Virus record (IMG/VR): IMGVR_UViG_3300040786_000047
Length of the DNA: 64,000 bases
DNA from: a virus
Direction: 5' to 3' (one strand)
Shown here: piece after piece, positions 680-64,000 of the stretch
Position numbering within the stretch: position 1 is the first letter of the stretch
Layout of the letters: every line of letters starts with the position of its first letter
Notes under the pieces: model-generated
The model's input: the letters and a program-made list of their open reading frames with translations, nothing else
Database searches by the model: none
Told to the model about the DNA's origin: nothing
Made by a program: the position numbers and the translations under genes

Positions 680-1073
680 ATGATTAAGAAATATAATAAA
701 TTTGTAGAAGATAGATTGGTAAAAGAGGATGTACAAGTTGCACCTGAAGAAATCAAACAAGATGATACTATTCCTGAGGTAGAAGAGATTCCAGAAGAAG
801 AAGAAGGTGGTAAGTATATTGGTGATCAAAATGGACAGATTAGCAAGTATGTTAGGTGTTGATAAAAGTGCTAAAGGAGCAATTGAATTTGAAGGTAAGG
901 AAATAAACTTTTATTCAGAAACTGAAAAATTTCATGTTGGTGGTAAGAAATTTAATACATCAGAAGAAGTTATTGAGTATTTAAAACCAACTAAACAAAG
1001 ACCAAAAGAAGAAAACTTAGATGCTGAGTTTGAATCAAAAAGTTACAAAAGCAGAGAATTAAAAGTTAAATAA
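680..1073 (+). CDS. Acidic putative internal head protein with CTS-like N-terminus (frameshift near 800)
   Basis: MIKKYNKFVEDRLVKE start; ORFs 680..862 and 807..1073 join; TAATATATA at 651-659. Confidence 0.6.
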
Positions 1074-1076
1074 AAC

Positions 1077-1105
1077 AAAACCCACTAAATTTTAGTGGGT
1101 TTTTT
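1077..1105. terminator. Bidirectional intrinsic terminator
   Basis: AAAACCCACTAAA-T-TTTAGTGGGTTTTTT hairpin between convergent genes. Confidence 0.85.
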
Positions 1106-1484
1106 ATCTTGATCATTTAAATCATCACCGTTATTATTATACTCATTAGGATCATTTCCATTCATACTATCAGGATGCTCATTAGGATCATTTAAGTCAT
1201 CATGGTCTCTTCTTTTGTATTTGATTAACCATATAACCTGCAACAACAAACTGAATCGACGCCCATATACCAAAATCAGCAGTACTCATAACATCATACT
1301 TTTTAATTAGAAAAAAATCATACCCCACTCCGCAATTGCAAAACCAATACCTGATTCCATTCTTTTTTAGAAAGAAGCTTTTCTTACTGGAGTATATAAG
1401 AACCATTTCACGAAGGAACCATTTAATATTAGTCCATCCTAGTAGATATTTTGTATTTTTTACATTTTTTAATGGAGTTTTCAT
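1085..1484 (-). CDS. Two-TM membrane protein with acidic tail, possible holin (frameshifted)
   Basis: Rebuilt hydrophobic segments GIGFAIAEWGMIFFLIKK and FGIWASIQFVVAGYMV followed by a D/N-rich tail with DPNE repeats. Confidence 0.45.
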
Positions 1485-1512
1485 ACCATATATATTAATA
1501 TAAAAAATGTAA

Positions 1513-2704
1513 TTATATTTTACCAAACTCATTAAATTTCTTATTATAGTCTACTTCATCTATTTTCTTCCTTCTACTAAATTTAGGTAACCATTTAATA
1601 TCTAGTATATCATGACTAAAAAAGTTTTGAAGTGATAGCTTTTTATAAACACCTGGTGTTAATTGGTCTAACTTGTTAATATCCTTTACTTTACTAATTC
1701 TGTGTAATAACCTGTATGGATCAGCCACACTTTTTTATTATCTACAATAGACTCAAACATTTTCTTCCATAGGAATACATGGTATCCTTGTTTTAATTTT
1801 TCTGACTTCTTGAATCCAGCCTCATCATTATCGAAGAAATATTGAATATCTAAGCCATTATTTTCGATTAACTTAAAGTCGGTATTAACACCTACAAGTC
1901 CTATTGAATTTGGAAAGAAAAGAGAGTCTAAATATCCTTCAAATACAGTAATTCTATTACCAAGGTCTACATTAAGTATATTAAAATAATATGAGAGTTT
2001 ATTATAAACAACAAGTTCGTTCATATCCATTTGTATTTCAACATCTTTACCAATATGTATCCATTCTAATAGATTTTCATAATTATAAATTTTAAACATT
2101 CTACGTCTACCTTCTCTTAGGTTACGAACTTGCATACCTAGAACCTTATCATCTTTACGATTAAGCATTATAATTATCCATTCACTCTCATCTTCATTTT
2201 TCCAATACTTTGCTTGATATATATTCTTATGTAGTTCAGGTGCTATTCCACGTCCTATTAAATATTTATAAATACCACCATTAGTTTGTATTGGTTTAAA
2301 ATCTGATATAGGTGTAATATCTGAACTAAATACTCTTCTAATTCACTCAAATCGATTAAGTTTTCCAATCTAGCATCTACAAAGTCTGTTCCATAATCAG
2401 TGTAAGTAACAACACTTTCAAGATGTTCTATCATCTCTAACTTTTATCAGGATCTACCTGCTCATTGAAGTCTCTACACATCCTATCAAACGTGGTCTTC
2501 TTATCACAATTAAAACAGATATAAATTAGTTTATTTAGATAAACATTACCTCTCTTAGAGTGTGCGTTTTTATGCGAATCTTGACAATATGGACAGGCAA
2601 TATTATACCTTTCGACAAAATCATTAATTTTTTCTCTTATGTGTATTAGAAAACTCTTTATTAAGAATCTTCTGTATTAAACCATGTATATATACTCTAT
2701 CCAT
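1513..2704 (-). CDS. DNA primase, T4 gp61-like (frameshifted)
   Basis: Zn finger CPYCQDSH..KRGN..YICFNC at the N-terminus; TOPRIM motifs VFEGYLDS and YFFDNDEAG in ORF 1686..2168. Confidence 0.9.
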
Positions 2705-2708
2705 TCCT

Positions 2709-2736
2709 ATTATAGTTTTTTAAATATATTAAGTTC
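2709..2736 (-). promoter_or_regulatory. Putative phage middle promoter for primase
   Basis: GAACT-N17-TATAAT just upstream of ATG 2704. Confidence 0.55.
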
Positions 2737-2752
2737 TTTTAAATATTTTTAC

Positions 2753-2760
2753 TATCTTTG
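2753..2760 (+). promoter_or_regulatory. Bacteroidota-type -7 promoter element
   Basis: TATCTTTG (TAnnTTTG) 11 nt before ATG 2772. Confidence 0.6.
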
Positions 2761-2771
2761 TTAGATGATAA

Positions 2772-3771: not shown

Positions 3772-3781
3772 ATTTAATTAT

Positions 3782-5971: not shown

Positions 5972-6602
5972 ATGTCAGACATTGAAAAATTTTAAAATCA
6001 AAAAAATAAACAGTACTTATTTAAATTATTATAAGAATAGTTTAAATTACAATTACGGAGGTGACCAACAAGTTGATGTATTCACAAAATTGTTCGAAGA
6101 TAGAATATTGATGTTGACTGGAGATGTAGATGATTACATATGTGATTTAGTTAAAGCACAGTTACTTTACCTTGAATCTGAAAGTAAAGAAGATATAACA
6201 ATGTATATAAATTCTGGTGGTGGTTCAGTATATAGTGGACTAGGATTATTAGACGTTATGGACTTTGTTAAGCCTGATATAATAACCGTAAATACGGACT
6301 TGCAGCATCTATGGCAGCAGTTATTCTTTGTTCTGGTACAAATGGTAAAAGAAAGGCACTTAAAAGAAGTCGCACAATGATACATCAACCAATGAGTTAT
6401 GGTTCTGGATATTCACAGGCATCTGATATGGAATTAGACACAAAGGAAATATTATCTTTAAAGAAAGAACTGTACGAGATAATTTCAGAAAGTTCAAACA
6501 TATGATAAAGTTTATAAAGATAGTGATAGAGACTATTGGATGAGTGCGGCCGATGCTAAGAAATATGGAATCATAGACGAAATTATTGTAAAGAGGAAGT
6601 GA
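5972..6602 (+). CDS. clpP: ATP-dependent Clp protease proteolytic subunit (frameshifted)
   Basis: DVFTKLFEDRILML, LLYLE, MYINSGGGSV, TG(L)AASMAA (Ser), MIHQP (His), DRDYW (Asp). Confidence 0.95.
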
Positions 6603-7035: not shown

Positions 7036-7058
7036 TTCATTAGTTAATATATAAACTT

Positions 7059-7460
7059 ATGAAACATTTAAAACTATTTGAGGAATAACATTCTCACCAA
7101 AAAGATATTCTATACAAAGACAAAGGAGATTCAACTATACTTTATAGTTTTGATTATGATGAGTATAGTTTTCTTGTAGAGTTCTACCAAGTGCTATCTA
7201 TTGAAAGATAATACCATTTCTATGGAAAAGGTTGATGATTATCTATCAGAATTGTGGAGAAGAGATTTTCAGTCGAAGAGGGTTTTGGCACTTTAAACAT
7301 TTCGGTAAGCTATAGATATTTATTCTTATGTTGCTAAAATAACAGAGGATTTTTTAAATGAATATAATCCTGATATATTAATGATGACACATACATCAAA
7401 GTCTAGGTTTAATATAAACTGGAAATTTATGGAAAATTTAAATATAAGTAAAGATTATCT
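7059..7460 (+). CDS. CTS-like N-terminus protein (frameshifted)
   Basis: Starts MKHLKLFEE; TAATATATA at 7045-7053. Confidence 0.55.
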
Positions 7461-7976: not shown

Positions 7977-8375
7977 CTACCATTTGATGGTATTGCCGTA
8001 TATGAAGCAGTACGCATTAAATATCCACTTCGCTCTAAATCTATTACTATTAACCTCTTTTTTAATTGCATCAAGTTTTGATGCATCTGCCCAAGCATAG
8101 TTAACATAGTCAATAAGTGTAAGTATATAATCTGATATTTCGCTATATACAAAATTATTATTATTATAACTTGTAGTCTTAAAGCTTCCGATACTAATAT
8201 ATACCTCAATAGTATTAGGTACTTCATCAAATGAAGCTTGATTTATTAAAAAGATAGTCTGGTTTACTATAACTTTAACTTCAAAGCCTTTATCTACGAG
8301 TTCAACTAATACTCCGTTAATATCCTCTTCTAATTTAGTTCTATTAAAACTTTCAAACAATTTAATATATTTCAT
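7977..8375 (-). CDS. CTS-family paralog A1
   Basis: MKYIKLFESFNRTKLEEDINGVLVELVDKGFEV..FVYSEISDYILTLIDYV. Confidence 0.75.
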   Translation of the reverse strand: MKYIKLFESFNRTKLEEDINGVLVELVDKGFEVKVIVNQTIFLINQASFDEVPNTIEVYISIGSFKTTSYNNNNFVYSEISDYILTLIDYVNYAWADASKLDAIKKEVNSNRFRAKWIFNAYCFIYGNTIKW

Positions 8376-8435
8376 ATTTTATTTATTTTTATAATAATAA
8401 AATTTAATAGCTTATCTCTAGTTTCTTCTATTAAA

Positions 8436-8743
8436 TTAACTTTGAATCAATATCACGATATCTACTATATCCTTTAAATTTATAATGTATTTCATATTTA
8501 ACAGTAACGTCTTTATTCCAAAATACTTTAAGTAGTCAATAGTAGTATCTATATAATCTTCAACTTCACTATACTTAAAACGATCATATATCATATTCTC
8601 TTGATGCAGTACAATAATAACACTTTCTTTTTCTATATTGACCTTAACGAAGAAATTATTATCTTTCAACTCAATTAATAATCCGTCAATATCTTCTTTA
8701 ATTTACTTTTATTAGAACTTTCAAACAACTTAATGTATCTCAT
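8436..8743 (-). CDS. CTS-family paralog A2 (frameshifted)
   Basis: MRYIKLFESSNKSK..EDIDGLLIELKDNNFFV..FKYSEVEDYIDTTIDYL. Confidence 0.75.
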
Positions 8744-8749
8744 AATCTA

Positions 8750-9096
8750 TTTTAATTTTAATTAAGTGTATTTGTGAATTAGCATATGGTTCATCATTTT
8801 TGTTAAATAATGTTCTTTTCTATAAATTTCATATATATATCCGTTTTAAATTCAATGCTTATATCATCACCAAGAGCATTATTTAAGTAATCTAACATCG
8901 TATCCACATAATCTTTTATTTCATCATATTTAAAATTAACTTTTTTTAATAGAAATAGAAATATAACTATTAGTAAAATCCTTCTTTATAGAAAAATTAT
9001 TATCTATAAGCTCAATTAACATTCCGTCAATATCAATTTCTATTTTATCTATGGGATATTTACTATCAAACCTTCAAAAAATTTAATGTATTTCAT
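8750..9096 (-). CDS. CTS-family paralog A3 (frameshifted)
   Basis: MKYIKFFEG..DIDGMLIELIDNNFSI..FKYDEIKDYVDTMLDYL. Confidence 0.75.
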
Positions 9097-13166: not shown

Positions 13167-13190
13167 AGATAATAATTTAATATATACGAA

Positions 13191-15027: not shown

Positions 15028-15056
15028 GTGGAGCTCTTTTTAAAAAATAAAATAAC

Positions 15057-16562: not shown

Positions 16563-16563
16563 C

Positions 16564-22394: not shown

Positions 22395-22439
22395 CTTTAA
22401 TAGTTATAAAAAAAGAAAAAATAACTTAATATATAGTTT

Positions 22440-24050
22440 ATGAAAAATATACAAAATTTTAATAACTTTAATTTAATTAAAGAAGAAGCATCACCAAGAC
22501 TTCCTAAATCAGAAGATTGGTTGAAGAAAGGAAAAGATGGAAAAAAAAGTAGCTATTTATCTACATGATGATATGGATGGTATCTTTACTGCAATAGAGG
22601 TTAAGAATTTACTAAACGCAGGGTTTACTATTGAGAAATATGGTATACTTAATTACTCAGAAGGTTGGAAATATACTACACTTGATCCAAAGTTAATAAA
22701 CGTTGTAGTTGACTTTGCTAATATGCCAGGTGATGAAAGAGATGATTTAGTTGATTATTATTAGACCATCACGGGATATTTACACCAGAACAAAAGAAAG
22801 ATATAAATCATCACCTGTTCAAAAAATGAAAACAGGATCTGCTTATGAGGCGATATGTATCAATTTAGGAGTTCCGCAAGATTCACTAACAAAGGTTATT
22901 GATATGATAGACTCTGCAAAGTATCAGGATTATGGTATTTCGTGGGATAGATTACTAGACTTTAATATAGCATCTATGAAAAAGTCGAAAGACAAAAGAT
23001 TAGAATTTGGTGCTGCATTTAATCAATTTATAAAAGAAGTGATAGTAAAACTATAATATCTGTTGTTGATAACACTAACGATGCATCTATATATGCAATA
23101 TACAATGTAATGAAAAAAGTTTATCCAATGCACAACCTACGATGGGTGGTCCTAATAGAGGAATGCCAAAAGACTTTAATAAAGATTCTGAATGGAGACT
23201 TGGAGAAATGCAAAAAAAGAACTAGAGGTTTTAATAAAGTAAAGACAACATTTAATACACAAGCAGAGTTTATACAAAAATTCCAAAAGGTAATCTAATT
23301 AAAGTAGATGGTTATCAAAAAAATTGGTGACCTTATATTTGTCCCAACAGGAACTTGGGCAAATGCACTTAGAGCAAGAACAATTGTCGAAAGAGACTTA
23401 AAAGCAGGTCATCTTGATTCAGAGCCTAAGTTTATATTATTGCAATATGGAGGAACTTTACAAGTTTGTGGATATAAGAAAATGGAAGAGATGGAATTAC
23501 CAACATTAAAGAATGGTGAGGTCGTAAATGATTTGGGTAAGTATATGACTGAATTATTAGAAACTTTAAAAAACATTTAGGATATCACAATCCTGATACA
23601 TCTATTGGACAAGATGAAATTACAGTTCTGGTGGTCATGGTGGTATTGGATCTATTTCGAATGTTTTTGGTGAATGTAAAATAGCTCCTTATATTGGACA
23701 AAGATATATTGATATGTTTAAAAATAAAATAATTTCAGATTTATCAAATGGCGTTTTATTTAATTTAAACTTAAAATGGAGCGAACCTGCTGATTATAAT
23801 ACAAGTGAGCCTACTATGAACAACAAAGTTATTAATAAATCTGATGTTACGCAATTAGACAAACAAGGTAATATTGTTAGTAGCAATGAAAGTTCTGAGT
23901 ATGCTTTAATGGATAAAGAAACAGGTGTTAGTAGAAGTTAGTAAAGAAGAGTTTATGAAAGTAAATGCATCTAATCCACTTAAAAACAAAATAACTATTG
24001 ACGATGATAATAGAATAGTTTCAAGTTTTGAGAAGTTTAATCAAAAATAA
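22440..24050 (+). CDS. DHH-family phosphoesterase with CTS-like N-terminus (frameshifted)
   Basis: MKNIQNFNNFNLIKEE; motif I YLHDDMDG, motif II VVDF, motif III LDHH; TAATATATA at about 22427-22435. Confidence 0.8.
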
Positions 24051-25277: not shown

Positions 25278-25590
25278 ATGAAACATATAAAGATATTTGA
25301 AGAATTTGGAGAAAGTGGTAACTTTCACTAATAAAAGAAATAGAAACCAAGTAATAAAAGTTACTAAAACTCTGATGGTAGAATAACAGAAATTGATAAT
25401 CCAACAGAGTGAGATTCGCTTTTTCAGTAGGTCAACTTTTAATAGAAATGCTGAAATTTGGGCAAGTAATAACTTCTAATGGATGGTAAAGATATGAGTC
25501 AGAAAAAAAGGTAATGGGTATTAAAGTATCTGATATACCTCTTGGACATGAATTGAGAGCGTTATATCCTGGTAAGTTCAGAAAGTAAAA
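25278..25590 (+). CDS. CTS-like N-terminus protein (frameshifted)
   Basis: Starts MKHIKIFEEFGES. Confidence 0.55.
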
Positions 25591-27500: not shown

Positions 27501-28090
27501 AATGAAGTACTTAATAAGTTTTAATGAAAGTAAAGTAAATAAAAATCTTCAGAAAGTGATGTTAGAAATCTATTAGTTGAGTTATTAGATTTTGATTTGA
27601 TATTAAAATAACTTCTACAAATGGATTTTGTAGAACAAGAGGATTCCTTAATAAAGAAATTGATATGGCTGAGTTTCTAGATAATCTATTATCATTTATT
27701 ACAAAGATGGAATATAGTGGATATCAAAGAGTAAGAAATGAAGTATCAGTCAAACAAGATTATGAGGAAAAGGTGATGTCACGCTTTGAAATTGATTTTA
27801 AACTTAAAGACTTTACACCAAACACAAGAGACGTAAACAATTTTACTTCATTTGAAGGTTATATTAATAATATAGGATTTAAGTATATGGATAACTATTC
27901 GAAATTGATGTATATCAATTTAATAATATAGAGGTTGTGTGTTATGAAAAGGATATCAATTAAGAACTTTATAATGACTATGACTTGAAAAGATTTTAAA
28001 TAGTTACGAAGGAGATGAATTAAATACTTTAAGTAAAAATATTACATCCGAAGTAGATGGTTCACAAGGTAATGAACATCCTTATAATAA
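27501..28090 (+). CDS. CTS-family protein (frameshifted)
   Basis: MKYLISFNESKV..DVRNLLVELLDF; includes ORF 27665..27931. Confidence 0.6.
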
Positions 28091-28132: not shown

Positions 28133-28962
28133 ATGAAGTATATAAAAAAGTTTAATGAAGAATTAAAATCATCAACACTTCTTAGCGCATCTAAACAACT
28201 TAGTGATATGGGTAATAAGTCTAGTATTAATAGAGCCGAAAAATTAAAAGAATGGTCTGTAAATGCCTCTGAAAGAGGCATATTCAGAAAATCTTATTTC
28301 ATGGAAAGAGAATGTTAAAAGTATTCAAATATGGTTCTTTAGATTAAAAATGACTAGTAAATCGAATGGTCAGAGCCGGAAGGAAGCGGGGTACAAAGAG
28401 CCGCCGGTATATATGGAAGATTTCTACCTTGATTATCATTTGATAGATCTATGTTCTGATAACCTTTCAGAAGAAGCATATGCTGAAAATGATAACGACT
28501 TTGATGGTGATGTTTACGATAACTATACTGCTAAAATCTTTTAAGTGCAGAACTTATTCCAAAGAATAAAGAGTCCTTGGATAAATGTTTAAAAAATTTT
28601 CCAAAAAAAAGCTCAGGTAGCGATATCTTTGGGGTGGTTGGGTATCAGGACTTTGGATAATTATTGATATTAAAGTTATAAATGGTAATAGATTTGAGAT
28701 TTCTAATCTATCAGTTACGGAATATGATGAGTATGATACGGGTGGTGTTAGTTTAACAACAAATTCTGCACAAAACTTAAAACTTATTAGTTTCTCTTTT
28801 GAAGATAAAAGTTTAAACTATCCTTCCAACGAAGGGATTCTAGTCAATATGATACTTTATATAAGACAATACTAATAGAGGCTGGGATGTCTTCAGATTA
28901 TGGATTAACTTTAGATGATATTGCAGAATATATAAAATCTTTTCCTAAACATAAATTAATTA
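28133..28962 (+). CDS. CTS-like N-terminus protein (frameshifted)
   Basis: Starts MKYIKKFNEELKS; coding continues to ..LTLDDIAEYIKSFPKHKLIN. Confidence 0.6.
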
Positions 28963-34040: not shown

Positions 34041-34291
34041 ATTTATCTATGAAATAATTTAACCAAGTCAATACATCATTCTTTATTTCATTCCAGTTAA
34101 AAGGTATTTTTATAAATTACTAAACTTGTTTCTAACACATCACCGTCATCATTATATTCAGAACCAGTTGCCTCAATTGAAAAATCAGAATCTATTAAAT
34201 AAGCAAGGTATAAACGTGCTTCTTCTTCTATATCCCAATTTACTTTTTCTTGATTTACTTCTGACTCATTAAACTTTTTCAAATATCTCAT
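34040..34291 (-). CDS. CTS-family paralog
   Basis: MRYLKKFNES..LYLAYLIDSDFSI..WNEIKNDVLTWL. Confidence 0.7.
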
Positions 34292-35229
34292 TATTCTTGA
34301 AATTCTATTTTGTAGTCTATTTAACCAGCCATCACCGTGTGTATCAAAAGTACTAGCTCTTTATATCTATTTTCACGATATTCTTTTATTGTATCAAATA
34401 TCTTCTTGGTCTAACGCATTCATCTTCTTAATAAATTTACTATCAAGAGGATTATCATTATCAGTTATATTTATTCCTTTATTTAACAAAACCTTTCTCA
34501 ATACTGACTTTATTCCTGAAATTCCTTGGTTAACACAGCCATCATATATAATATTTGCTACTGATTGATTAGAAAAACTTTTAAGATGTTGTGGTTTCCA
34601 AAATTTATTTTATATATTTTAATGCTGTGTCTTGTGATAAGTTAACCATATCACTTTAGTTGGAGTTCTTTTAAATGTGCCTTTAATATAGGTGCCGATA
34701 TTCCATATTTAGACCCTATAAATCTTTTCAATAATTTATCACCTACTTTAATATCAACCCAATTCCCAGTATCTTTCCTATCATCTGAATAACCACCCTC
34801 AGCAAGAGAAACTATTTTCTGAGACTCCTTAAAACTAGACTCTTTATTTAATTTAACAAACTCTTCTACCAATTCTTCTATAGGTTGTGATTTAACATCA
34901 TAAGAAGTATTATCCTGTGTAAGGTAAGATAAAGATGCAAATAATAAAAATATAGTGGCATAGTTTATCATTATGGTTCTCCTAGCCACATCAGGTAGTA
35001 ACTTTATTCTGCTCAAAATTTATAAAAATACTCTTTAACCTTTTCTTTTGATAATTTTGAAAGAAACTGCTTTAATCGACCTAGTGTGCTATTATCAGAT
35101 TTATTAAAATTCCATTCGAGTAACCGGCTTCTCATCATCATACTTTTCAAATACTTCGAAAATACTATTAGTTATTTTTTCAAACTCACTTTCTAATAGA
35201 AAATTTCTATATTTATTTAATTTTACCAT
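34291..35229 (-). CDS. GH108 lysozyme with PG-binding C-terminus, CTS-like N-terminus and a hydrophobic segment (frameshifted)
   Basis: MVKLNKYRNFLLES start; AEGGYSDDRKDTGN, SKYGIS, IYDGCVNQG, GDGWLNR motifs. Confidence 0.85.
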
Positions 35230-35873: not shown

Positions 35874-36548
35874 TTTCGTTCTAAGTTGAAAGTAATATTA
35901 ACTTGATTTCCTTCTCCAATAGGAACATTCTCTATATATATAATACCATAGTCATAATTTATTGTGTTGATAACTTTATTAAATGCATCTTCTGATATCT
36001 CTATAAGGCTTCTGTCGTATGGATATAGAGTATCTTCTGATATAGTATGAAATCCATTAGTCTTATCAAAATTTATTATAACTCCATAAAAAATTCATTA
36101 TCTATGCCTTTTTTTCTTATTTCATTATATTTATACAATTCAACTGAAAAAATATTATTCTCCAAAGATTCTTTTCATTTCGGTAATTATCATGTGCTAC
36201 GCTTCTAATACCATCTAAATAACGTATTTCACCTAACTCGAACCGCTCGTCGAATAATTCAACAAGACATCCTTTAATCATATCATCTTTATCTTGTGTT
36301 GATTCTTCTATCTTATTTGTTTTTACTGGTTTTAGGTCTCTTAAATCACTAACCTTTGACGGATCACCTTTCTTTCTCTTTTTTAGACTTTGTATCTAAT
36401 ACAACTCCTATATCACCACTTCCTTCTGTTCCAGTGTTACCTGCGATGCTCCCGCTTGTGATGAAACTACTGCACCCATTCCAGATGTATTAGATGCATT
36501 TGCTGTTGCGTCTTCGTAAAACTTTTAAAACTTTTTTAAGTGTACCAT
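35870..36548 (-). CDS. CTS-like N-terminus protein (frameshifted)
   Basis: MVHLKKF..FYEDATANASNTSGMGAVVSSQAG. Confidence 0.55.
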
Positions 36549-37306: not shown

Positions 37307-37630
37307 ATGAAACATTTAAAAACATTTGAAAATTTCTCTGTTCTAGAAGGAAAATTTAAAAAATTCTTTACTGACATTCATCATCAGAGGAAAAGACCAA
37401 GCAAGAGTAAATTCTTTAGCGAATTAGAAGACTTTGAAAAGAAATCAAATAATGATTCTAACATTTCTTTTAATAGAGAATTTTAGAAGAAAAGCGAAAG
37501 AAAACAACTATAAAGGTGGTTTAGAGGCTAGAACAAGTGCTAAAGACGGTAAAGTATATATTATATACAAAAAGGTGTTACAGGTCTAGAAGACTTAGCA
37601 TCAAGTGCACATTGCAGGTGATGCTTACTA
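37307..37630 (+). CDS. CTS-like N-terminus small protein (frameshifted)
   Basis: MKHLKTFENFSVLEG; TAATATATA upstream. Confidence 0.6.
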
Positions 37631-38478: not shown

Positions 38479-38678
38479 TATTTCTTATCTTTTTTTCTTC
38501 TTCCATTTACCACCTTTACTTTATATCTTTGCGGTGCACCAACTGCATATGCAGAAGGCCAAACATCATACTTTGACTTAGCCCAGGTTTTACAGGTGTT
38601 CCATAACGCTACATCTTTAGGTACATTCTTCTCAAGTGTAAGAACTCCAAAATCTTCGAAAATTAGTAAATGATTCAT
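38478..38678 (-). CDS. Small basic CTS-like protein, DUF5872-like
   Basis: MNHLLIFEDF..KTWAKSKYDVWPSAYAVG..YK. Confidence 0.7.
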   Translation of the reverse strand: MNHLLIFEDFGVLTLEKNVPKDVALWNTCKTWAKSKYDVWPSAYAVGAPQRYKVKVVNGRRKKDKK

Positions 38679-42224: not shown

Positions 42225-42818
42225 AATATTTAATATGTTTCATATTACTTTTGTTTTTTTAAAATTGCAGCTTGTAAACCTGCTGGAAGTTTCTTTTGTT
42301 TAGCAGTTAAACCTTTTGCACCTTTAACTTCTTTCTCATCTTTCTTTTCGTCCTTATCATCTTCTTTAGGAGCCTTCTTACCCATCTTTTCAAGATACCT
42401 GCTTGAAGTGCTGCTGGAAGTTTCTTTTGAGCCGCAGTTAAACCTTTAACTTCTTTCTCATCTTTCTTATCTTCTAGTATCTTCAGCTTTGCTATCTTTC
42501 TTACCTTTTGACTTTTGCTTGTCTAAATAAGCTTTGAATCCAGGATTCATTTTTTTTTTTCAACGATTTCTTCATCACCCCATCTTTTTATGCGGTTCAT
42601 TTTATTCTCATCTTCTTCGTCTATTTCTTCTCCATCTTCATCATATTCGTCAACTTCATCCTCATCTTCAATTTCATTTGCAAAATCATCATCTTCGCCT
42701 AAAGAATTTTCGTACTCATCTTCATCCTCATCTTTATTATAAGGGTTAGTTGGTTCTCATCTTCTTCATCTTCAAATCTACCAAAGTCATAGCTCTCAAA
42801 ATTCTTTAAATACTTCAT
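42225..42818 (-). CDS. CTS-like protein with acidic N-half and basic C-half carrying a duplicated motif (frameshifted)
   Basis: MKYLKNFESY; D/E tract; KGLTAAQKKLPAALQAGILKK and KGLTAKQKKLPAGLQAAILKK repeats. Confidence 0.7.
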
Positions 42819-42903
42819 GTTAATAATCTTTTATTATATATTAAATTTTATTTATACTTTTTTTTTTTTTAATAAAAGTATATCAATATTTAATATATAA
42901 AAT

Positions 42904-43620
42904 ATGAAAATACAAAAATTTGAAGAGCACTCACTTTATGATTCTATGTCATTAGATTTCATAGAAGGATTTGACCGAATAATAAAAGAGTCAAATGAAG
43001 TAAACTATAATAAAATACAGAACAAAGTAATAACCGATTTAAAACTAAATACCGAACTAGTTCTTACGTTCGGTACAGGAATAGTACATTTTATCCTATT
43101 GTTTATCAACTAATGGAAAGATGAAGATAGATTCTATTGAACTAACATATGATAAAGTGGTTTTATTAACTATATGTGCAATAACTATTATTTATATAGA
43201 AGAAAAGAAGTTTACTAGTGCAATTGAAGAAGATATTTTACGTAAAGATTCTAAATCAATGTTAGAAGAATTGAAACTTATGGGTATTGTAATGGAATTG
43301 TTAAAAAACTAATAAGAATATTTAAATCAATAACTTCTATATTTAAATTAATAGGTAAGCATGTTGGTTCTATTGTCGGTGGATTTATGGATATGTTCGC
43401 ATATACTGCAATGTTAATACCTATAATGAATGGTATATTATATGTCATTGGAAAGTATGACTTAAATTTTGATAATTTTATAAAAAACTTTATAGGTTTA
43501 TCCATAGGAGTTGGTACTATAATTACAAAGCATGGCATTTCTATGATACTTAATAAATTAAAATCCAATAATAAAATAGGAGCTCAAAGGTTAAACAGAT
43601 AATTGATGAAATTGATACAT
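42904..43620 (+). CDS. Multi-pass membrane protein with CTS-like N-terminus (frameshifted)
   Basis: MKIQKFEEH; hydrophobic segments in ORFs 42904, 43121 and 43387. Confidence 0.55.
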
Positions 43621-48292: not shown

Positions 48293-48300
48293 AAAAAAAG

Positions 48301-48341
48301 ATAAAGAACTATTAAACTAATAGTTCTTTATTTTATATATA
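48301..48341 (+). promoter_or_regulatory. 14-bp perfect inverted repeat overlapping the nrdB AAACT-N17-TATATA promoter
   Basis: ATAAAGAACTATTA-AAC-TAATAGTTCTTTAT; AAACT at 48314-48318, TATATA at 48336-48341. Confidence 0.6.
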
Positions 48342-48359
48342 TAATAAAATAATAAAAAA

Positions 48360-49509: not shown

Positions 49510-49925
49510 TTCGAAATCATCTCTTAGTATAGTTTTCAATTCAAATCCTTGTTTAATTGAACGATTCTTATCTATTGTAAAATATAATCCGGTGAAGTTA
49601 TTATTTGGATCTTTTGTGTTACGAAACTTGGTTGTTTATTTAGTGTCCATTTTTTTAGCAACTCTTCTATAAATGGAATTAAGTCATACTTAACATCTTC
49701 CCACCTAAATTCAGTGTAATCACTTTCTTCCCAATGTGGAATTAATCCGAACATATTTTCAACCTCTTTATGTCCATTTTTCTTAGATATAACTATTTTA
49801 TAACCAGAAAAACGAGCATCAGTAATATCAACACCAAATCCATAATCTTTCAAATATGCTAGGTAAATATCACCTAATATCATAATATCATTCTTACTTT
49901 CATTAAATTTACGTAAGTGCCTCAT
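49510..49925 (-). CDS. CTS-family paralog
   Basis: MRHLRKFNES..YLAYLKDYGFGV..WEDVKYDLIPFIEELLK. Confidence 0.75.
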
Positions 49926-50211: not shown

Positions 50212-50768
50212 AATAACCAGGTATGTCTTACCTCCAATAAATGTCCAAATTTGTTAATTCTACACGCCCAATGGCAGTAGTTTTATCTTTTTTAGTATCA
50301 CACTTATGTCTAGCTGCAAATGACTTTCTGGCCTTAGGATCACTTACTTTGCTGTTAATCCACCGTGAACATCACCAAATGAAATCTTCTTGACTTTACC
50401 ATTTTTGGATTTTAACATAAACATAATATTTCTTCCGCCTCTCATAGGCTTGTTTAGTTTTACTTCTCCTTGATAATCTGCTTCATTTAACTCTTCGATA
50501 ATTTCCATTGGTAAATCCAAGGTACTGAAACTCCATTATATTCTATGAATCTTCCTATATCACTTGATTCAAATAACTCGGTATCTAGTTCTGATAGTTC
50601 GATTTGTTTATTATCAAATAATATCCTGGCTTCTTTAATCAAATTAAAGTATTGATTAGAACCTGGTCTAAATATATTCTCAACAACAGGTTTATTATTG
50701 TCTATGTGATATTGTAAGTTTTCTGATATTTTACCAGTAAAGTTTTCAAATAATTTTAAGTATTTCAT
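50212..50768 (-). CDS. CTS-like protein with C-terminal DUF6321-like basic domain (frameshifted)
   Basis: MKYLKLFENF; C-terminal KYYVYVKNP..KVKKISFGD..DPKARKSFAARHKC..WAC. Confidence 0.75.
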
Positions 50769-51199: not shown

Positions 51200-51570
51200 T
51201 ATATTATCATTTTCTTCAAATAATTTCATAAAATAGAATTCTTTCTTTAGAAAAGGTAATTGTTTTGGATATTTCACCTATTTTGGTTGCGTACTGAGTA
51301 ACTTCTATAAACTCTATATTATACGTTAATAACATATAATCTAAATATTGTAACACATCATACTTACATTCTAACCAATCTGTAAGTTGGTTACCTTTTT
51401 TTCTTATTGTTGTTACAATGTATCTAAGATTGTTTCTAGTAGAGACTTCATAGTTATCATCTATAATATATGATAATAATTCTTCTGAGTCTTTTTTATT
51501 TTCAGAAAAGAATAGGTCCACCTTGATTACCTTCTGTCAATAATTCTCTAAAGCTATCTAAATATTTCAT
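51200..51570 (-). CDS. CTS-family paralog (frameshifted)
   Basis: MKYLDSFRELLTEG..LLSYIIDDNYEV..WLECKYDVLQYLDY. Confidence 0.7.
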
Positions 51571-53713: not shown

Positions 53714-54300
53714 ATGAAATATATAAAAAAGGTTCAATGAAGCTATTGTAGATTATAACAATCCTGAAATAGATTCTCTAATGAAAGATATTGAAGATTC
53801 AAATAAAAAACATTCACTATAACAGAATTATCTGAAATGTCAGAACCTTATAATATAGAAATTGTAAACTATGACACTTTTTATAATGAATTACCACAAA
53901 GAGATAAGAAAACTGCCTCCTAGACAAGCACCTTTTTCGCACTAGTTAATCCAGTTACTAAAAGCCAAGAATTGTTTTAATACCAATACTGTATATAAGT
54001 CCTTTTTTAAAGAAGTTCCTATTGGTGATATACTTAAACATGAGCAAATTCACATTGGTCAGTATAGTAGAAGACCAATGGAGACTCACTACCTGAACCT
54101 AAAGATCAAAAGTCTTATTTCTCCAATAAAGATGAAGTTATGGCATTTGCTTTTCAATAGCAAAAGAGGTATTGCTAGATATCCAAATATAAAACCCAAA
54201 CGAAGGTATTATAAAACTAACAAATAATGTTTTTAGATTATATGCACAAGTTAAGATGAGTGTTGATGCAAGAACATTAAAAGATATAATATATATATTT
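53714..54300 (+). CDS. Zincin-like metallopeptidase with CTS-like N-terminus (frameshifted)
   Basis: MKYIK(R)FNEA; ILKHEQIHIGQY (HExxH) and YFSNKDEVMAFAFSIA (third-ligand Glu). Confidence 0.75.
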
Positions 54301-54407
54301 ATATTTAGAAGATATATTAAAAAAGATAAAATTCACAAATCTATGAATCATAAAACTATTAAGTGATATTAGATTTTTTTATATATACATAAAAAAGTTT
54401 TATTTAG

Positions 54408-55925: not shown

Positions 55926-55926
55926 A

Positions 55927-57410
55927 ATGACAGCATCATTTAGTATAAATATAGGACTACCAACTGAATCTAAAACTATCCAGTTGAGGAAAATTTAAAT
56001 TATTTATTATCACAGTTATGATAATGAAGATAAGTTTATAACACCTATAAGTTTACGAGATACCTTTTTATCACTGTGGACAAGTGTACCATTTAAAGAG
56101 ACCATATTGAATAGTACTTATAGATATATAGGACTAGACTCTTCGAGGTCATTATATCCTAGTGGAGCCCCACTAACAAAGAAGATTCTTATGGGCAAGA
56201 GGTCGTTTTATCAAATGATATTATGAGCGAATCTCTTTTAAGTTCAGATTTTGACATTTTATTTTACAATACAAAGATAGATACTATATCAAACACTGCT
56301 ACAAAAATAGCATTTTTAGCAGGTAACGACTTCTCACTTTTCCAAGAGCTCCTTATATACAAAGTGAAAAGGTTTCTGGAATAACACAATCATCACTATC
56401 ATTAGATTTTATTAGTATGTCTGGTGATGTAAACCTTAATAGCGGACTTACAGGTAGTTTTTTAATATCCGGTTCTAATAGTAATGGAAGTATTTATTTC
56501 CCTACAATAGATGAAATGTCTTATCCAAATCCAAGCATTGATAACAAGATATTAACTTGGAAAGGACCCACTGCATATGGTAAATTAGTATGGGATGAAT
56601 TAAGGTTACCAACTACTGACTATATTGGAACTACTGGTTCTGAATTAAACATATACGGAAATCGGTAAATGTAAATGAATATTCACTTGAACTAAGTGAT
56701 ACTAGGTATGTTCCTAGTATTATTGGTGATATAGGACTTGGTTCAACTTTTGATAACGTTTCAATTTCAGAAGTTTTGAGAAAATGATATATGAGTATTT
56801 ACCACCTTTCTACATTATTAATAGATTATAAATATGCAGAGGTTGGTACATATCCAACACCAGTTCTATCTTATACAATTACTAAGAGAACATTAAGCAC
56901 AGAAACAACGGCATTGTCTAATATGATACCAAGCTCATATCCTTCAATTGTAAGTAATAATCAAATTATTATTAGTGGAACATCAAGTGGTGTTGTAGTT
57001 TCACCAATAAGTGCAACTCATACATATTTTAGTATAACAGTTTCTGATGGCACACAAACAAGTTCTTTAACACAATCTATTTTAGGTATATATCCTTATT
57101 TCTATGGATTTTCAGAACAACTTATAATAAATGTAAATGCTATGGTTGGGTTAACTAAGAAGGTAGAATACAAAGGAGATAAAATAATAGATATTTCAGG
57201 AAGTGGTAATTTTACTTTATCTATGATAATAGTTATGGTTTAATGTCAAGTCCTCCTGTAATAAATGGAGTAAGTGCGGTATATAGTAATAGGGTTTTGT
57301 CATCGCCTACTGGACTTTGGTCAGTGAAAGAGTTTATAGTTTATCAATGGAATGGAGTCACTCAAATAGGACCTCCTTCACAGAATTATGATTTTAGATA
57401 TTAAAAAAAA
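55927..57410 (+). CDS. Virion structural protein, paralog B2 (frameshifted)
   Basis: MTASFSINIGL..DNEDKFITPISLRDTFLSLWTSVPFK; shares DSSN/DSS..KI..GK and IAFLAG blocks with B1. Confidence 0.6.
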
Positions 57411-57421
57411 ATATATACATT

Positions 57422-58870
57422 ATGTCAATACAAATAATAGATGGGTACCAACTTAATAATAGCAATGCTGCAATAGATAATAGATTTGTTGTAGGTCCTG
57501 GTTACACATATACACAGAAAACTTTAATAACATATAAATATCCTGGACTTAGAGTTTGGGACATGACTATCGGTAGTGGAACCCCATTTACTTGGGATGG
57601 TGTGAGTTGGGTAGCAGATGCACTAGCAGGTAGTGGTATAAATGCTACAAGTGCTCAGATAAACTATCTACCCAGGTTTAATGATACTTCTGGTAATTTA
57701 GTTAATAGTGATATATTTAATGGTAGTAGCAATGTCGGTATTGGACTAACTGGTTCTAATCTTAACCTGGTTGTTAATCTGGGAAAAAGGACTACAAGTT
57801 GCTGGTAATATAGGTACAAATGGTTTCTTTTATGGAAGAGGTAGTAATATAACAGATTTAAATGCGAGCAATATAACTTTAGGTAGTTTATCACTTAATA
57901 GAATTTCAAGTAATAATACATTTACTGATACCACGCCATTTATACTTCAGTCAGGACCAGGTAATGTAGTGACTTGGGTAAAGTCTACATCTGTTAATGC
58001 AAGTAACGCAACAAATGCCGAAAATTTAAATATAATAGAACAATCAACTTCGTCAAATACACACTATCTAGCATTTTCGATTGGTACTGGATATAAACCG
58101 GTAAATATTTCTACAACTGGATTAAGATATAAGCCTAATAATGGACAAATACAAGCATTAGACGGAACTAGTGCAATACCTACATATTCATTTATAAATA
58201 GCAATACAATGGGTATGTACTTTGAAAATGGATTACTTAGTTTTACTAATAATTCTACAAGAAGAATGTCTGTAAGTACTAATGGTGTAGTTTTATATAA
58301 TACAAATGGTCCTCAAATACAATTTAATAGTAGTGCTGGTGATAGAGTATTATGGTCTAAAAATTCTGATTTATATTTTAGATATGATGGTACTATACCA
58401 GGAAGTAATATACTTGCTGTTGATTACAAAATGTTACATACCGGTAACCTATCCATAGGGCTAATAGCGGTCTTACTTCAACTGGTAGTATTTTAACTGA
58501 AAATTTAATTATAAAACACGCAACGTCTGTGGTTGGTAATACTTCAATACGGGAAATGATGTTTTACAAAATTTACAATTTGATGCATATGGACATATAA
58601 CTGGTTTTCTACACAAGTAATAGATCCTCAGGCTTGGAACAACAACTAACTACAAATGGATATCAAAAGATGAGTAATGGTTTAATATTCCAGTGGGCAT
58701 ATTTAACATCAGGTACTAATACATATAACTTTCCTATAGCATTTACATCACAATGTTTCAGTATTCATATTACAACAAAAAGAATTATGATGACATGGAG
58801 CATTAGGAATCATGCAAAACTTTCATCAACCACAGCATATGCTGTTATAGATTCAAGTAAGGATGATGTT
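57422..58870 (+). CDS. Tail fibre / receptor-binding protein (frameshifted)
   Basis: N/G/S-rich; C-terminal NGYQKMSNGLIFQW..FPIAF..CFSI fibre-tip motif. Confidence 0.75.
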
Positions 58871-59610: not shown

Positions 59611-59625
59611 AAATAATAACATAAA

Positions 59626-59939
59626 ATGAAAATTAAACGTTTTTATGAAAGTGAAGAACAAAAGAATATCTCATCTGAAAGGGTTGAAGAAATACTAAAA
59701 GTTTAAAAGACTTTTCAGTTAAAATTGGAGATGAGAACAAAACAATAGATTCTTTGTTGACTGAATTGAGTTCTTATAAAAATTTATCATCTAAGTAATG
59801 ACCAGATTGATGACTCGATAGCAGCATTACAAATTGTTTCTAAAATGTAGATGACACCATTGATAAATTAGATACTGTTATAAATAATTTAGATGATTAT
59901 AATATTTCAGGTAGAAGTTACCTATATACTGAGAATAAA
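59626..59939 (+). CDS. CTS-like coiled-coil protein (frameshifted)
   Basis: MKIKRFYESEE; heptad-like DQIDDSIAALQ..IDKLDTVINNLDDY. Confidence 0.6.
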
Positions 59940-60199: not shown

Positions 60200-60689
60200 T
60201 TAACTATAAAGTGTTTTGTAAATAAGAACGACTATATCATCAACAATACTATGTAAATGCGTATCTTCTTCGGATATACTCTTTCTAGCATGTTTTACAT
60301 ATTCTGCAAGTTCTTCAAAGTATGCCAACTTTTCTTTTGTTTTAGTACCGTTTGTATCAATTGTCTCATAACCATCAACAATACCATATTGTCCTTGATA
60401 TGTTTCTATAACAGTGTCTATAAGGTCTAATATACCATCATAGTACTCACCAAGTGCAAGGTGTGCTGCATGTGAACCTTCATCACCTCTTACTTGTAAA
60501 TGATAAACGTGTGCCATTTCTCTTGATTCAAACAATTTAGAGAAAAATGTAACTACGCTTCCTTCAGTTTGCCTCAGTTGGTACCTCATCTACAACAGGA
60601 CTAATTTGTGCCGCGGTTTCAACATTTGCGATATTAGTCAATATCTCATCTTGTTCGTATACTTTTCTTATGTGTGAAAACTTTTTCAT
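60200..60689 (-). CDS. DUF5856 / Dps-like four-helix protein with CTS-like N-terminus (one frameshift)
   Basis: MKKFSHIRKVYEQ; AHVYHLQVRG..AHLALGEYYDGILDLIDTVIETYQG. Confidence 0.75.
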
Positions 60690-60815
60690 ATAAAATCTTT
60701 TTTTTATTTTGATATATCAATTTTAATATATATATAAAATTAAAGAACTGTAATAATTGATAATTAAGGTTCTTTAATTTTATATATAAGAAATAAATAA
60801 ATAAATAATTATATT

Positions 60816-61075
60816 ATGAAATACATTAAAAAGTATGATAGGTTTGTTGAAGGCACGGAAACGGCACCAGCACCTACAAGAACAACACCATCTCCAACAA
60901 CTAAACCAGGTACAAGACCATCAAGACCATCAGTTGTTCCTAGTAAAGACCTAGTGAAGAAGATGCTCCATTAGCAGAACTAAAGCATGAAGGACCCGAA
61001 TCTTCGATTAAAGACATCTCTGATAGAGTATTCAATGTTTTAGGTGAGGATGAAGCTAAAAAATTAATTAAATAA
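60816..61075 (+). CDS. CTS-like Pro/Thr-rich small protein (frameshifted)
   Basis: MKYIKKYDRFVEGTETAPAPTRTTPSPTTKPGTRPSRP. Confidence 0.65.
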
Positions 61076-61076
61076 C

Positions 61077-62625
61077 ATGAAGAGTTTTTCAGATTTTATA
61101 AAGAAGAAATAGATTTAAGAGGAAATAAAGGTATTCCAGATAATTTAATGGGTGATTCTGATAGACAAGCATCCGCTAATCTAGGCATATCCATAGATAA
61201 TCCGGCTCAAATGCGTACGTATGACCACAAATAATGAACCTCATAGGACAATCTAAACAAATTGTTGGTAGAGGTCTAAATAGAGATGAGCTAGAAGAAA
61301 GACTTGTTAAACTTGAAACATTGGCAAAAAACATTGTACTTAGTGAGTATGGTGAATTATTATCAGCCACTGATAAACCAGTTAACTTGATTATAAACTA
61401 CTTAGAGATAGACGAAACGTTTCTTCGGAGATTCCTGAGATGGATGACGTACCAAAAGCCAATCAAACAAGAGGTTATAAGAGATGCTGATATAAGAAAT
61501 GCAGTAGATAAAAGAAGATATTAAACGTCTTAAATCAAGGTGAAGCAAAAGCAACTAAAAATATTATACAGTATTCTGAATTAATTGAACCAGGTCTAAG
61601 AGATATTCGGTGAACAATGGAGAACTATATTAGATATTTGGTTACAAACTACCGAGTTGCTAATAAACTTGACTGGATAATGCCAATTGATATGAAGTCT
61701 GATATGATGAAAATATGCCAGAAGGTATGGCAGGTGCTTGTCAAGTTACTTGGGAAAAGGATGAAGAAGAAGATGAAGAAAAAACAAACACAACCTAAAG
61801 ATGAGGATGAGGATGAAGAATATGATGAAGAAGTTGACTTTGAAGGTGATCAAGATGACTATGATAGTATAACTATAAAGGCAGTCGGTATAGACTCTTC
61901 CTATGTTACACGAAGCAATTAAAGGTATATGGCTTTATTAAAGTCAGGTGCAATAAAAGAAGATGAAGAGATGGCACAGTTAATTGCACAAAACACATCT
62001 TCATTTGAAGATGAGTCACAAGACTTTAGATATGGTGTTGCTATGCAAGCTATGTTCAGAGATTTCATATTAGCGTAAAGACAATAGTAAATATTCAAAT
62101 ATGAATGCTCGAATATATGCAAAGATGGCATTGGATAAAGATAGAGGTGGTGATTTTAGTGATAGTGAATTTCTAGAACTTTAAAAAATCTTTATTCTCA
62201 ACATTTGATTTAGTAAGAGAGCGTTTAGAATTCAAACTTAATCAAGATAAGTTTGAATCATCTGATGCTAAGAACAAAATAGAAAGACTTATTGCTGGTA
62301 TAATTCAAGCAGAGATGAACTATGAGAAAGAAATGGAAGAATGGGAATCAAATGAAAAAGGTGAACTAGAATATGGTACTAGTGGAAATTATGAAGATGA
62401 AGATGACTCTTCTTTTGATGATTATTTAAAGATTCAGGTATCAGTAAGTCAACTGATAACGAAGAAGTAGATAAAGATGTATTGATATGTCTGATGCTGA
62501 GTTGGACGATATATAAAACTGCAAAAGAAAGAGATTCAAGAAGTGGTTGATGATTTACTTGATAAAGGAGAATTCTCAAAAATTCCTAGATTTTCTAAAT
62601 ACCTTAAAAGAGGGTTGAGATATAT
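61077..62625 (+). CDS. Large CTS-like protein with acidic tracts (frameshifted)
   Basis: MKSFSDF.KEE; joins ORFs 61234 and 61617; conserved-looking ..LLHEAIKG.. and E.QDFRYG blocks. Confidence 0.6.
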
Positions 62626-62686
62626 CTAAGAGAAATTTCAAATATAAATGAAAGTAAAAATAGAAGAAAATAAAAAAAGAAGAAAA

Positions 62687-64000
62687 ATGAAATTATTTAA
62701 ATACAATCAGTTTATAGGAGAAAACTCTATTAATGAAAACTTGGATAAAGCCAAAAGTTTCTAAAAGATAAATATCTTTTGACTACATCTGTTAAAGAAC
62801 TAGGACTTCTAACAGGAGAGCTATGCTCAAATAAAACATGGAGAAAGAAAAGTTTACAATGACTTCTCAGATGATGAAAAGAACTTATTAAAAAGAAGAT
62901 AAGAGAAACTAAACTCAGTCCAGAAATTGTTAAGAATATAGAAAGAGACCCTGAATTAAAAATAGTCAGAGAATTAAATGCGAATATCATTACATCAAAC
63001 GGTACGAATAAGGTATATCAATTAGATAGAGATAATATCGGTTGGTTATCAAACTTTGTATACTTTTACTTCTATGAAAATGTGCCAGCAGATGAACTTT
63101 CACAAATTTATAAAAGTTATTACAAAATAAGGATATATTGACAAATCTTGAAATTAACATAGATGGTAATCTTGTTAAGAAACAATTTGACTTAAATTTT
63201 ATAAACTTAGATATAACTAATAATAGTGAGAATTTGATTGATGGTTTAGATAGATTAGAGCAAAATAGAAAAATTAAAAAATTAGTTGATAGTTTGACTC
63301 CTTTTAAAAGCAGGATATTTAAGAGCCTCAGAGAATAATAAATAAAAAATATCAGAGATTGCAGCCGGTTTTAACCAGTTGGGTGTGAAAGATGGTGTAG
63401 TAGATGAAGAAGCTAAGAATAAATATTGGAGTGGTTTCTTTGGGACTATGATAATGAGAGATGGTAAGATGGTTTATTCGCACTTGCAAGATATACAACT
63501 ATAGATGAGTTTATTAAGGCACAAAAACTATTTAAAATCTACTGATAATGACCAAATAATAGCATTCTGATAAGATAAATTTAGCAAACGACATTTGGTA
63601 ATGGTGGTGCAGATATTGTATTTGACCAAGATGGTATACTAGTTATAGAAGTAAATCTTTTCCATCAAATCAATTGCTAAACGGACACACCTCACATTGT
63701 ATTAAGGATAGTATGTATCAATGGGAAAGTTATGTATCAAGTCATAATAATAAACAATACTATTTATAACTTTAATATACCACAATATGATAATAGTTCA
63801 ACTATTGGTGTTACTATTGAACCTGGACAGAGGGTAAGAGCTGCACATAATAGAGCAGATCATGATATCACCGGAGAAATATAAAGATTGTTAAAAGAAT
63901 GGGAAAAGAGTATAAATTACTGATGATATTTGGTCTTTTCTAAGCCTATGAGTCAGGAAGATTGCACTTAGAGAAAGATCAAAATAGCAAACAGAGATTG
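62687..64000 (+). CDS. Large CTS-like protein with PcfJ-like (SHCI) region, truncated by window end (frameshifted)
   Basis: MKLFKYNQFIGENSINEN; GHTSHCIKDS..WESYV..QYYIYNF..IGVTI. Confidence 0.6.

Follow-up and report, generated by a model that had tools for sequence, protein, structure and literature searches.

A short N-terminal tag on many unrelated genes of uncultured megaphages is a candidate capsid-targeting propeptide

The window analyzed here is the whole 64,000-nucleotide stretch of the viral record IMGVR_UViG_3300040786_000047 from IMG/VR. About two dozen of its small genes, otherwise unrelated, begin with a common nine-residue peptide (hereafter the tag), far above chance. A preliminary description had proposed that this peptide directs dozens of different proteins into the phage head for delivery at infection. 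We consider it slightly better than an even bet that the tag is a scaffold-mimicking capsid-targeting propeptide, used by a clade of uncultured megaphages whose heads are of the T4 type. Under this model tagged proteins would be made late, alongside the head proteins. The short amphipathic tag would mimic both the ‘YSEY[ILV]AE’ repeats of the head maturation protease and the end of the capsid propeptide, and we propose that by this mimicry the tagged protein co-assembles into the prohead core. A gp21-type protease would cut behind the Glu of the tag, and the mature protein would stay in the head and probably enter the next host cell with the DNA. We infer core binding, cleavage, retention in the virion and injection from the patterns described below.

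The pattern M[KR][YH][IL][KR].F[NE][ES] occurs eight times in the six-frame translation of the window, compared to 0.0 times in 20 dinucleotide shuffles, and a looser regular expression occurs 13 times compared to 0.2. Permuted control patterns have zero or one match. All instances of the regular expressions are the first Met right after an in-frame stop. Bit scores throughout are from a hidden Markov model (the tag profile) trained on N-termini of one related genome only, LR745206. With this profile, 21 Met-peptides of the window score at least 8 bits, compared to 2.2 in shuffles. In an intact near-relative that covers 34.8–64 kb of the window, 10 of 45 genes score at least 8 bits and 13 of 45 at least 6 bits.

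The window has a GC content of 28.9% and, under the standard code, no open reading frame (ORF) longer than 248 codons. An alternative genetic code was rejected, as reassigning any single stop codon gives no long ORF. Its best DNA matches are the uncultured phages LR745206 and LR756502 (635 and 642 kb, ~71% identity), which a preprint classes as freshwater and subsurface megaphages. Their ORFs are ordinary and long, and their proteins align to the window piecewise, with a change of frame every 100–400 bp. The Logan contig ERR11749013_1794 (58 kb), the intact near-relative mentioned above, matches the window at 34.8–64 kb with 78–96% identity and has intact genes. Compared to intact homologues, the window genes for helicase, ribonucleotide reductase (RNR), DnaB and tail fibres are split between frames (e.g., 40543–42166, 46486–48800 and 54342–58611). 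The window is thus probably a frameshift-rich, unpolished long-read assembly of a megaphage of the LR745206/LR756502 group. Because of these frameshifts many tagged ORFs end after only 7–26 codons, the ORF lengths behind the tags are unreliable, and any claim about ORF length or mini-genes needs an intact relative. True gene structures were therefore taken from LR745206, LR756502 and the Logan contig.

Some 26 tag sites had been listed in the preliminary description. We find that 21 of the 26 score at least 6 bits, the remainder being truncated, marginal, weak or unsupported. Frameshifts cut the sites at 36548 (−) and 53714 (+) to 7–8 residues, and their intact orthologues are clearly tagged (18–21 bits). 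The site at 42904 (+) is marginal (5.3 bits), that at 60689 (−) is weak (1.8 bits), and that at 38478 (−) is unsupported (1.1 bits). The tag placed at 27501 is real and starts at 27502. Many of the tags were also said to follow the upstream motif TAATATATA, and this is borne out: an exact copy lies at most 60 nt upstream at 12 of the 26 sites and a one-base variant at 4 more. The tagged sites are as follows.

680..709, + strand: class 2 tag (Y-x-x-F-V-x-D/E) MIKKYNKFVED, 11.7 bits; TAATATATA 20 nt upstream; the LR745206 orthologue begins MIKKYNQFVNDRINE.
7059..7085, + strand: MKHLKLFEE, 17.9 bits; a frameshift ends the ORF after 9 codons; TAATATATA 5 nt upstream.
8346..8375, − strand: MKYIKLFESF, 21.5 bits; the protein belongs to the ‘ELxDxGF’ small-protein family, and its LR756502 and LR745206 homologues keep the tag.
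8714..8743, − strand: MRYIKLFESS, gene 2 of a tandem triplet, 17.2 bits.
9067..9096, − strand: MKYIKFFEGL, gene 3 of the tandem triplet, 10.1 bits; TAATATATA 2 nt upstream.
22440..22469, + strand: MKNIQNFNNF before a DHH-type phosphoesterase, 12.0 bits; the LR745206 homologue has 663 aa, begins MISKYNQFINEE and has its DHH domain from residue 30.
25278..25307, + strand: MKHIKIFEEF, 20.1 bits; the ORF ends after 17 codons.
27502..27531, + strand: MKYLISFNES, 15.5 bits; TAATATATA 4 nt upstream.
28133..28162, + strand: MKYIKKFNEE, 19.8 bits.
34262..34291, − strand: MRYLKKFNES, 20.1 bits.
35200..35229, − strand: MVKLNKYRNFLLES before a GH108 muramidase, 10.6 bits; the LR745206 orthologue begins MDKLSNYNIFLLEKRF, with GH108 at residues 147–240.
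36519..36548, − strand: MVHLKKF..., frameshift-truncated, on a capsid-like mini-protein; orthologues score 18.5 and 21.3 bits.
37307..37336, + strand: MKHLKTFENF, 19.8 bits; kept in intact relatives of 112–118 aa.
38649..38678, − strand: a weaker tag, MNHLLIFEDF, 7.0 bits; TAATATATA upstream.
42789..42818, − strand: MKYLKNFESY on a very acidic protein, 17.4 bits; orthologues tagged, 197 aa in the intact relative.
42904..42933, + strand: marginal tag MKIQKFEEHS, 5.3 bits, and 6.3 in the intact relative (260 aa); TAATATATA 4 nt upstream.
49896..49925, − strand: MRHLRKFNES, 19.2 bits; the true protein has 151 aa, and M[KR][YH]LR[KR]FNE is kept in all five metagenomic homologues (35–99% identity).
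50739..50768, − strand: MKYLKLFENF, 21.0 bits; 191 aa in the intact relative.
51541..51570, − strand: MKYLDSFREL, 12.0 bits; orthologues read MKILNWKLFLEE and score low (0.3 in the relative).
53714..53737, + strand: MKYIKK..., frameshift-truncated; the intact relative (227 aa) has MKYLKRFNEA, 18.2 bits.
59626..59655, + strand: MKIKRFYESE, 10.0 bits; orthologues have MKIKRLYEND and MKIKRFYESD.
60660..60689, − strand: doubtful tag MKKFSHIRKVYE before a DUF5856 (Dps-like) domain, 1.8 bits, and 3–4 in orthologues.
60816..60845, + strand: MKYIKKYDRF on a Pro/Thr-rich protein of 88 aa, 16.0 bits.
61077..61106, + strand: MKSFSDFIKK, near MKTFKEF of T4 IPI, 6.8 bits, and 10.3 in the intact relative (548 aa).
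62687..62716, + strand: class 2 tag MKLFKYNQFI(GENSINE), 7.6 bits; orthologues found, 669 aa in the intact relative.

The relatives carry the tag on a larger scale. It is present on 135 of 947 gene starts in LR745206 (14%), compared to 6 of 2892 internal Met peptides (0.2%), which are essentially mis-called starts, and on 169 of 973 gene starts in LR756502 (17%). The preliminary description was right that the number of tagged genes is large, and with 135–169 per genome these relatives exceed the dozens it had claimed. A DNA pattern for the core motif has 33 matches in LR745206 and 22 in LR756502, compared to 0 for the reversed control, and no match in Tenacibaculum phage PTm1, pelagiphage HTVC008M, a T4-like Shigella phage or a cyanophage. 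The tag profile detects 2 of 311 genes in PTm1 (29.7% GC, Bacteroidota host), 1 of 195 in HTVC008M and 3 of 265 in T4. Based on the shuffles, the permuted patterns and the AT-rich control phages, an artifact of composition or host was rejected. More than 120 stretches in IMG/VR carry the motif, many on contigs of 200–640 kb, and 19% of the neighbouring genes on these stretches are tagged too. The main form of the tag is M-K-[YH]-[IL]-K-x-[FY]-[NE]-E and the second form (class 2) is M-x-K-K-Y-x-x-F-I-x-E.

In line with the proposal, the proteins behind the tag are mostly unrelated. When the first 14 residues were removed from 75 tagged proteins, the remainders fell into 69 BLAST groups. Few tagged proteins have a Pfam or PHROG family. 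Where known domains are present they begin behind the tag (NUDIX at residues 25 and 36, NFACT-R at 23, DHH at 30, GH108 at 147), and other tagged families are Acb1/2H, nucleotide cyclase, RNase T, methyltransferase and M15 peptidase. Tagged proteins have a median length of 162 aa and a median isoelectric point (pI) of 5.0, with 76% below 6 and 5% above 9. Two kinds of cargo that had been suggested fit poorly: membrane segments are depleted, not enriched (3.7% of tagged proteins vs 10%), and nothing in this analysis shows any DNA-binding peptides. In an AlphaFold2 model of a 151-aa homologue that is 99% identical to the 49925 (−) protein (5 sequences, mean pLDDT 69), the tag opens a predicted N-terminal helix (residues 2–21), with low confidence for the first ten residues.

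Also of note among the tagged LR745206 proteins are one resembling Acb1/2H phosphoesterases, two hydrolases of the NUDIX type and a DHH phosphoesterase, along with a nucleotide cyclase domain and an exonuclease similar to RNase T. It is plausible from these assignments that the enzymes degrade or make nucleotide signals in defence and counter-defence.

Selection acts on the peptide and not on the DNA, because synonymous codon use in the tag equals genome-wide use and the DNA upstream of tagged genes is no more alike than that upstream of untagged genes. By these two tests a DNA-level cassette or an RNA element was rejected. We give almost no weight to the idea that the tagged genes all diverged from a single ancient gene, or were shuffled by recombination inside a conserved DNA cassette, with a start that is inherited and not functional. 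One sub-family is real, comprising the ‘ELxDxGF’ proteins and the tandem triplet at 7977–9096, and tagged genes cluster (48 adjacent pairs vs 19 expected), as common descent would have it. For the whole set, a single paralogue family was rejected based on the number of BLAST groups and the unrelated Pfam folds behind the tag. When tagged gene starts are compared in the same register, their exact DNA matches are short, with a median of 7 nt and a 95th percentile of 12 nt, which argues against a cassette, as does upstream identity at background. Moreover, the residues of a leader without function would not have been kept as the bodies behind it became unrecognizably different. The tag is kept in 36 of 47 cases in which a tagged gene has a homologue in the other genome. 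Only 35% of tagged genes are shared between LR745206 and LR756502, compared to 48% of untagged genes of similar size (p 0.007), a higher variability between genomes like that reported for the internal-protein loci of T4.

The promoter motifs link the tag to the head genes. In LR745206 the motif [TA][TA]ATATATA (TAATATATA-type) precedes 52% of tagged and 16% of untagged genes (odds ratio 5.7, p 5e-18), and the link is repeated in LR756502 (odds ratio 7.1, p 6e-27). The same motif type is also upstream of the portal gene, the protease gene and large structural-looking genes. Of the 65 tagged genes without the motif, 61 lie directly behind a gene on the same strand. An AAAC[TA]-N17-TATA class precedes 1 of 135 tagged and 72 of 769 untagged genes, and a host-like TTTG..TAnnTTTG class 0 of 135 and 24 of 769. 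These two other classes, early-like and replication-type, are thus nearly devoid of tags, and the promoter class of the head genes is enriched in them. Consistent with the earlier claim that replication and baseplate genes lack the motif, the intact near-relative (window 34.8–64 kb) has no tag on DNA polymerase B, two helicases, the RNR subunits or three tail-fibre/baseplate genes. Tagged genes would accordingly be made late, together with the head proteins, a timing that is read throughout from promoter motifs.

Across LR745206, TAATATATA ends either 4–6 nt or ~19–26 nt before the start codon (in the window, e.g., 7045–7058, 22427–22439 and 42891–42903). Given the shorter of these spacings, many of the late mRNAs may be leaderless. 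It could be argued that the shared start has no role in targeting and instead boosts translation of leaderless or near-leaderless late mRNAs in a host without Shine-Dalgarno initiation, given that TAATATATA often ends so close to the ATG, that the tag codons are A/T-rich and start with Met-Lys, and that Met-Lys starts are common in efficiently translated genes. We regard this as very improbable. Structural-looking genes with the same promoter and spacing have no tag, whereas tagged genes occur at both spacings (4–9 nt and 20–34 nt). The tag is absent from PTm1, whose GC content and host phylum are the same. Codon choice in the tag is unbiased, and conservation extends to positions 7–10 (F, N/E, E, F/S), past any known ramp effect.

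LR745206 and LR756502 have T4-type head genes, with a portal gene (phrog_213) and a capsid protein whose match to Gp23 exceeds the cut-off of Pfam. The head maturation protease, 707 aa in length, matches phrog_207 (E 2.6e-30) and, by tblastn, annotated gp21 homologues of cyanophages; its match to Pfam S77 is below the cut-off of that family. Head genes of the gp21, gp23 and portal types are present in both genomes and in 80 IMG/VR loci. The protease comprises a gp21-like N-terminal domain, 10–13 tandem repeats of 14 residues (unit YSEY[ILV]AENLDKNI; LR745206 gene at 198546–200669), a Glu-rich, acidic stretch and, towards the C-terminus, a conserved part. This arrangement is kept in LR756502 and in 79 of 80 IMG/VR relatives. 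At least 196 relatives of the protease-scaffold were found in IMG/VR, tags and protease occur on the same IMG/VR contigs, and the phage collection yielded no cultured phage that has the full protease-scaffold fusion.

The repeats of the protease resemble the tags. The pattern [YF]xx[YF][ILV]xE occurs at 22 N-termini of LR745206, compared to 3.6 expected, and 11 of its 57 internal occurrences in the LR745206 proteome fall within the protease. In T4 the same pattern is found in the tags of IPII and IPIII and at the gp23 junction at E65, which is the end of a 65-residue propeptide (PMC5694885). A connection to the capsid protein itself comes from the mini-protein at window 36300–36548 (−) (intact relative 454–957, −; LR745206 93266–93520), which is 84–168 aa long in the relatives. 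Directly behind its tag it has a segment of the capsid N-arm (SGMGAV..QP..L.G.TG..GSGD.G), followed by a basic stretch. BLASTP aligns it to the capsid protein (E 4e-11) across the propeptide/N-arm junction, including the tag. The mini-protein could be a capsid-associated protein or a decoy of the capsid protein. The megaphage capsid protein had no match among PDB sequences (phmmer), and a MAFFT alignment of megaphage and T4 capsid N-termini was too loose for placing the cleavage site. When the full protease-scaffold was modelled in complex with a tagged protein of 68 aa encoded on its own IMG/VR contig, without controls, the score was 0.00 and the result was counted neither way.

A modular N-terminal tag selected as a peptide would fit any address label. 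The tag might therefore address another partner, such as a phage chaperone, a phage ClpP-type protease for timed degradation, or a replication or assembly compartment, in which case the tagged proteins would be late accessory proteins that work inside the infected cell without ever being packaged. We judge this unlikely, although it deserves to be taken seriously. A ClpP-family fragment is present in the window, the cargo is acidic, and enzymes such as NUDIX, methyltransferase, cyclase and RNase T are typical of the cytoplasm. However, a label of this kind leaves three results without explanation: the likeness to the capsid-targeting sequence (CTS) of T4, the concentration of the seven-residue pattern in the scaffold repeats of the protease, and a tagged mini-protein that copies the capsid propeptide/N-arm junction. 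No candidate reader was found for it.

Several results weigh against a capsid-targeting propeptide. We infer the virion location and the cleavage of tagged proteins, and the window itself is without a head module, the link being made via relatives at ~71% nucleotide identity. The likeness to the capsid propeptide and the repeats is drawn from a short regular expression and one BLAST alignment, and the tag profile fails to detect either of them. Conservation within orthologue pairs is no higher in the tag (49%) than in the body (51%). Three residues ahead of the Glu, tags of the main class have F/Y in place of L/I, so that cleavage by a gp21-like enzyme is an assumption. Tagged genes make up 14–17% of all genes, a very large cargo list, and the tagged enzymes could equally work in the cytoplasm. 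The tagged proteins are acidic (median pI 5.0), compared to the basic T4 proteins IPI, IPII and IPIII (pI 9.0–9.7). Finally, the top T4 match to the tag profile is the hypothetical protein gp61.1 (54 aa, NC_000866 18966–19130, next to the primase gene), which begins MKTFKEFIKED. To our knowledge gp61.1 is not known as a packaged protein, yet it has this CTS-like start.

The acidity of the cargo bears on a further possibility, namely that tagged proteins enter the prohead core as scaffold or filler and are degraded and expelled before DNA packaging, so that nothing is injected. The sequence of T4 gp67 is visibly acidic as well, and gp21 cuts the T4 core proteins gp22, gp67 and gp68 into small pieces (PMC5694885). 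The tag resembles scaffold repeats rich in [ILV]-A-E sites, and the core must be very large in a capsid that holds more than 600 kb. We nevertheless find disposable filler improbable, as folded enzymes (NUDIX, DHH, Acb1-like, GH108) would be odd material for it, and the high turnover between genomes fits arms-race cargo better than a part of the assembly machinery.

Returning to the capsid-targeting propeptide, its most far-reaching form is that the clade loads more than 100 different fast-evolving proteins per capsid by one tag and delivers them with the DNA. We hold this tentatively, as a possibility that falls short of an even chance. If true, the phages would bring an arsenal of ready-made proteins with about fifty times the diversity of the three internal proteins of T4, and delivered NUDIX, DHH and Acb1-like enzymes could destroy host immune signals. 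The tag would also point to candidate anti-defence effectors acting ahead of any phage gene expression. The injected proteome of the largest known phages could then be listed from sequence (14–17% of genes, mostly without a family), so that much of the megaphage ‘dark matter’ would gain a functional class, and the tag would serve as a short, portable peptide with which foreign proteins could be loaded into very large capsids. The protease-scaffold fusion, with its repeats that match the tag, provides a concrete model of how the tag may be read. In the literature on CTS, internal and ejection proteins, and megaphages we found no description of such a tag, and the preprint on marine megaphages does not mention N-terminal motifs. 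The T4 CTS is already known; its clade-wide expansion to more than 100 genes, together with a protease with tag-like repeats, was not found described.

Apart from the tags, two regions are of note. Window 5982–6380 (+) encodes a frameshifted fragment of a ClpP-family protease (Pfam E 7e-21). At 11268–17651 of the intact relative (window ~46.1–49.3 kb) the large subunit of RNR is in two pieces (472 and 349 aa) separated by an ORF of 325 aa, a DUF7487 protein of 577 aa precedes the small-subunit gene, and a GIY-YIG gene is close by. This layout suggests an interruption of the mobile-element or intein type.

The closest known counterpart is the CTS that T4 has on its internal proteins IPI, IPII and IPIII, which is established to be removed by the gp21 prohead protease. 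Like the megaphage tag, it is a short N-terminal leader on otherwise unrelated, fast-evolving proteins, and both have M-K-x-aromatic/aliphatic-x-x-F-x-x-E in common (T4 MKTYQEFIAE, MKTFKEF). The likeness that had been pointed out is upheld by the tag profile, which ranks IPI second, IPIII sixth and IPII ninth of 265 T4 N-termini, with modest scores of 4.6–8.9 bits. The megaphage clade also has gp21-, gp23- and portal-type head genes, and just as the T4 tag resembles the gp23 cleavage junction, the megaphage tag resembles the end of its own capsid propeptide. The systems differ in that megaphage genomes have 135–169 tagged genes compared to three or a handful, in that the cargo is acidic where T4 internal proteins are basic, and in that the main tag class ends in F/Y-[NE]-E compared to I-A-E. 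A leader end of (L/I)-x-E fits class 2 tags, whereas the main class has F/Y at the L/I position. The megaphage protease is fused to a repeat scaffold, whereas that of T4 works with a separate gp22, and megaphage tags, known here from genes alone, are also found on enzymes of several hundred residues. In the T4-like Pelagibacter phage HTVC008M, three neighbouring genes (113582–116400) begin MKSFKDFQN, MRTYRAFKK and MKTFTDFST, which looks like an internal-protein-type locus.

The phiKZ-like phages (SPN3US, phiKZ, 201phi2-1) are likewise giant phages with a gp21-related protease. This protease trims many head proteins after Glu, and tens of different proteins are packed and ejected, a targeting role of the propeptides being inferred by the authors (PMC5694885). 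Unlike the megaphage tag, the propeptides of these phages are mostly 80–160 residues long, share no single motif and have the cleavage motif [SAG]-x-E. At E ≤ 0.01, neither LR745206 nor LR756502 has a match to the phiKZ_IP family (PF12699).

Outside the phages, the nearest parallels are the cargo-loading peptides of encapsulins and the encapsulation peptides of bacterial microcompartments. These have other motifs, those of encapsulins are mostly C-terminal, and in these systems the peptide is not removed by proteolysis, the shell contains no DNA and nothing is delivered to another cell. Nevertheless, both are short, modular and amphipathic peptides that bring unrelated enzymes into a protein shell, which in encapsulins has the HK97 fold.

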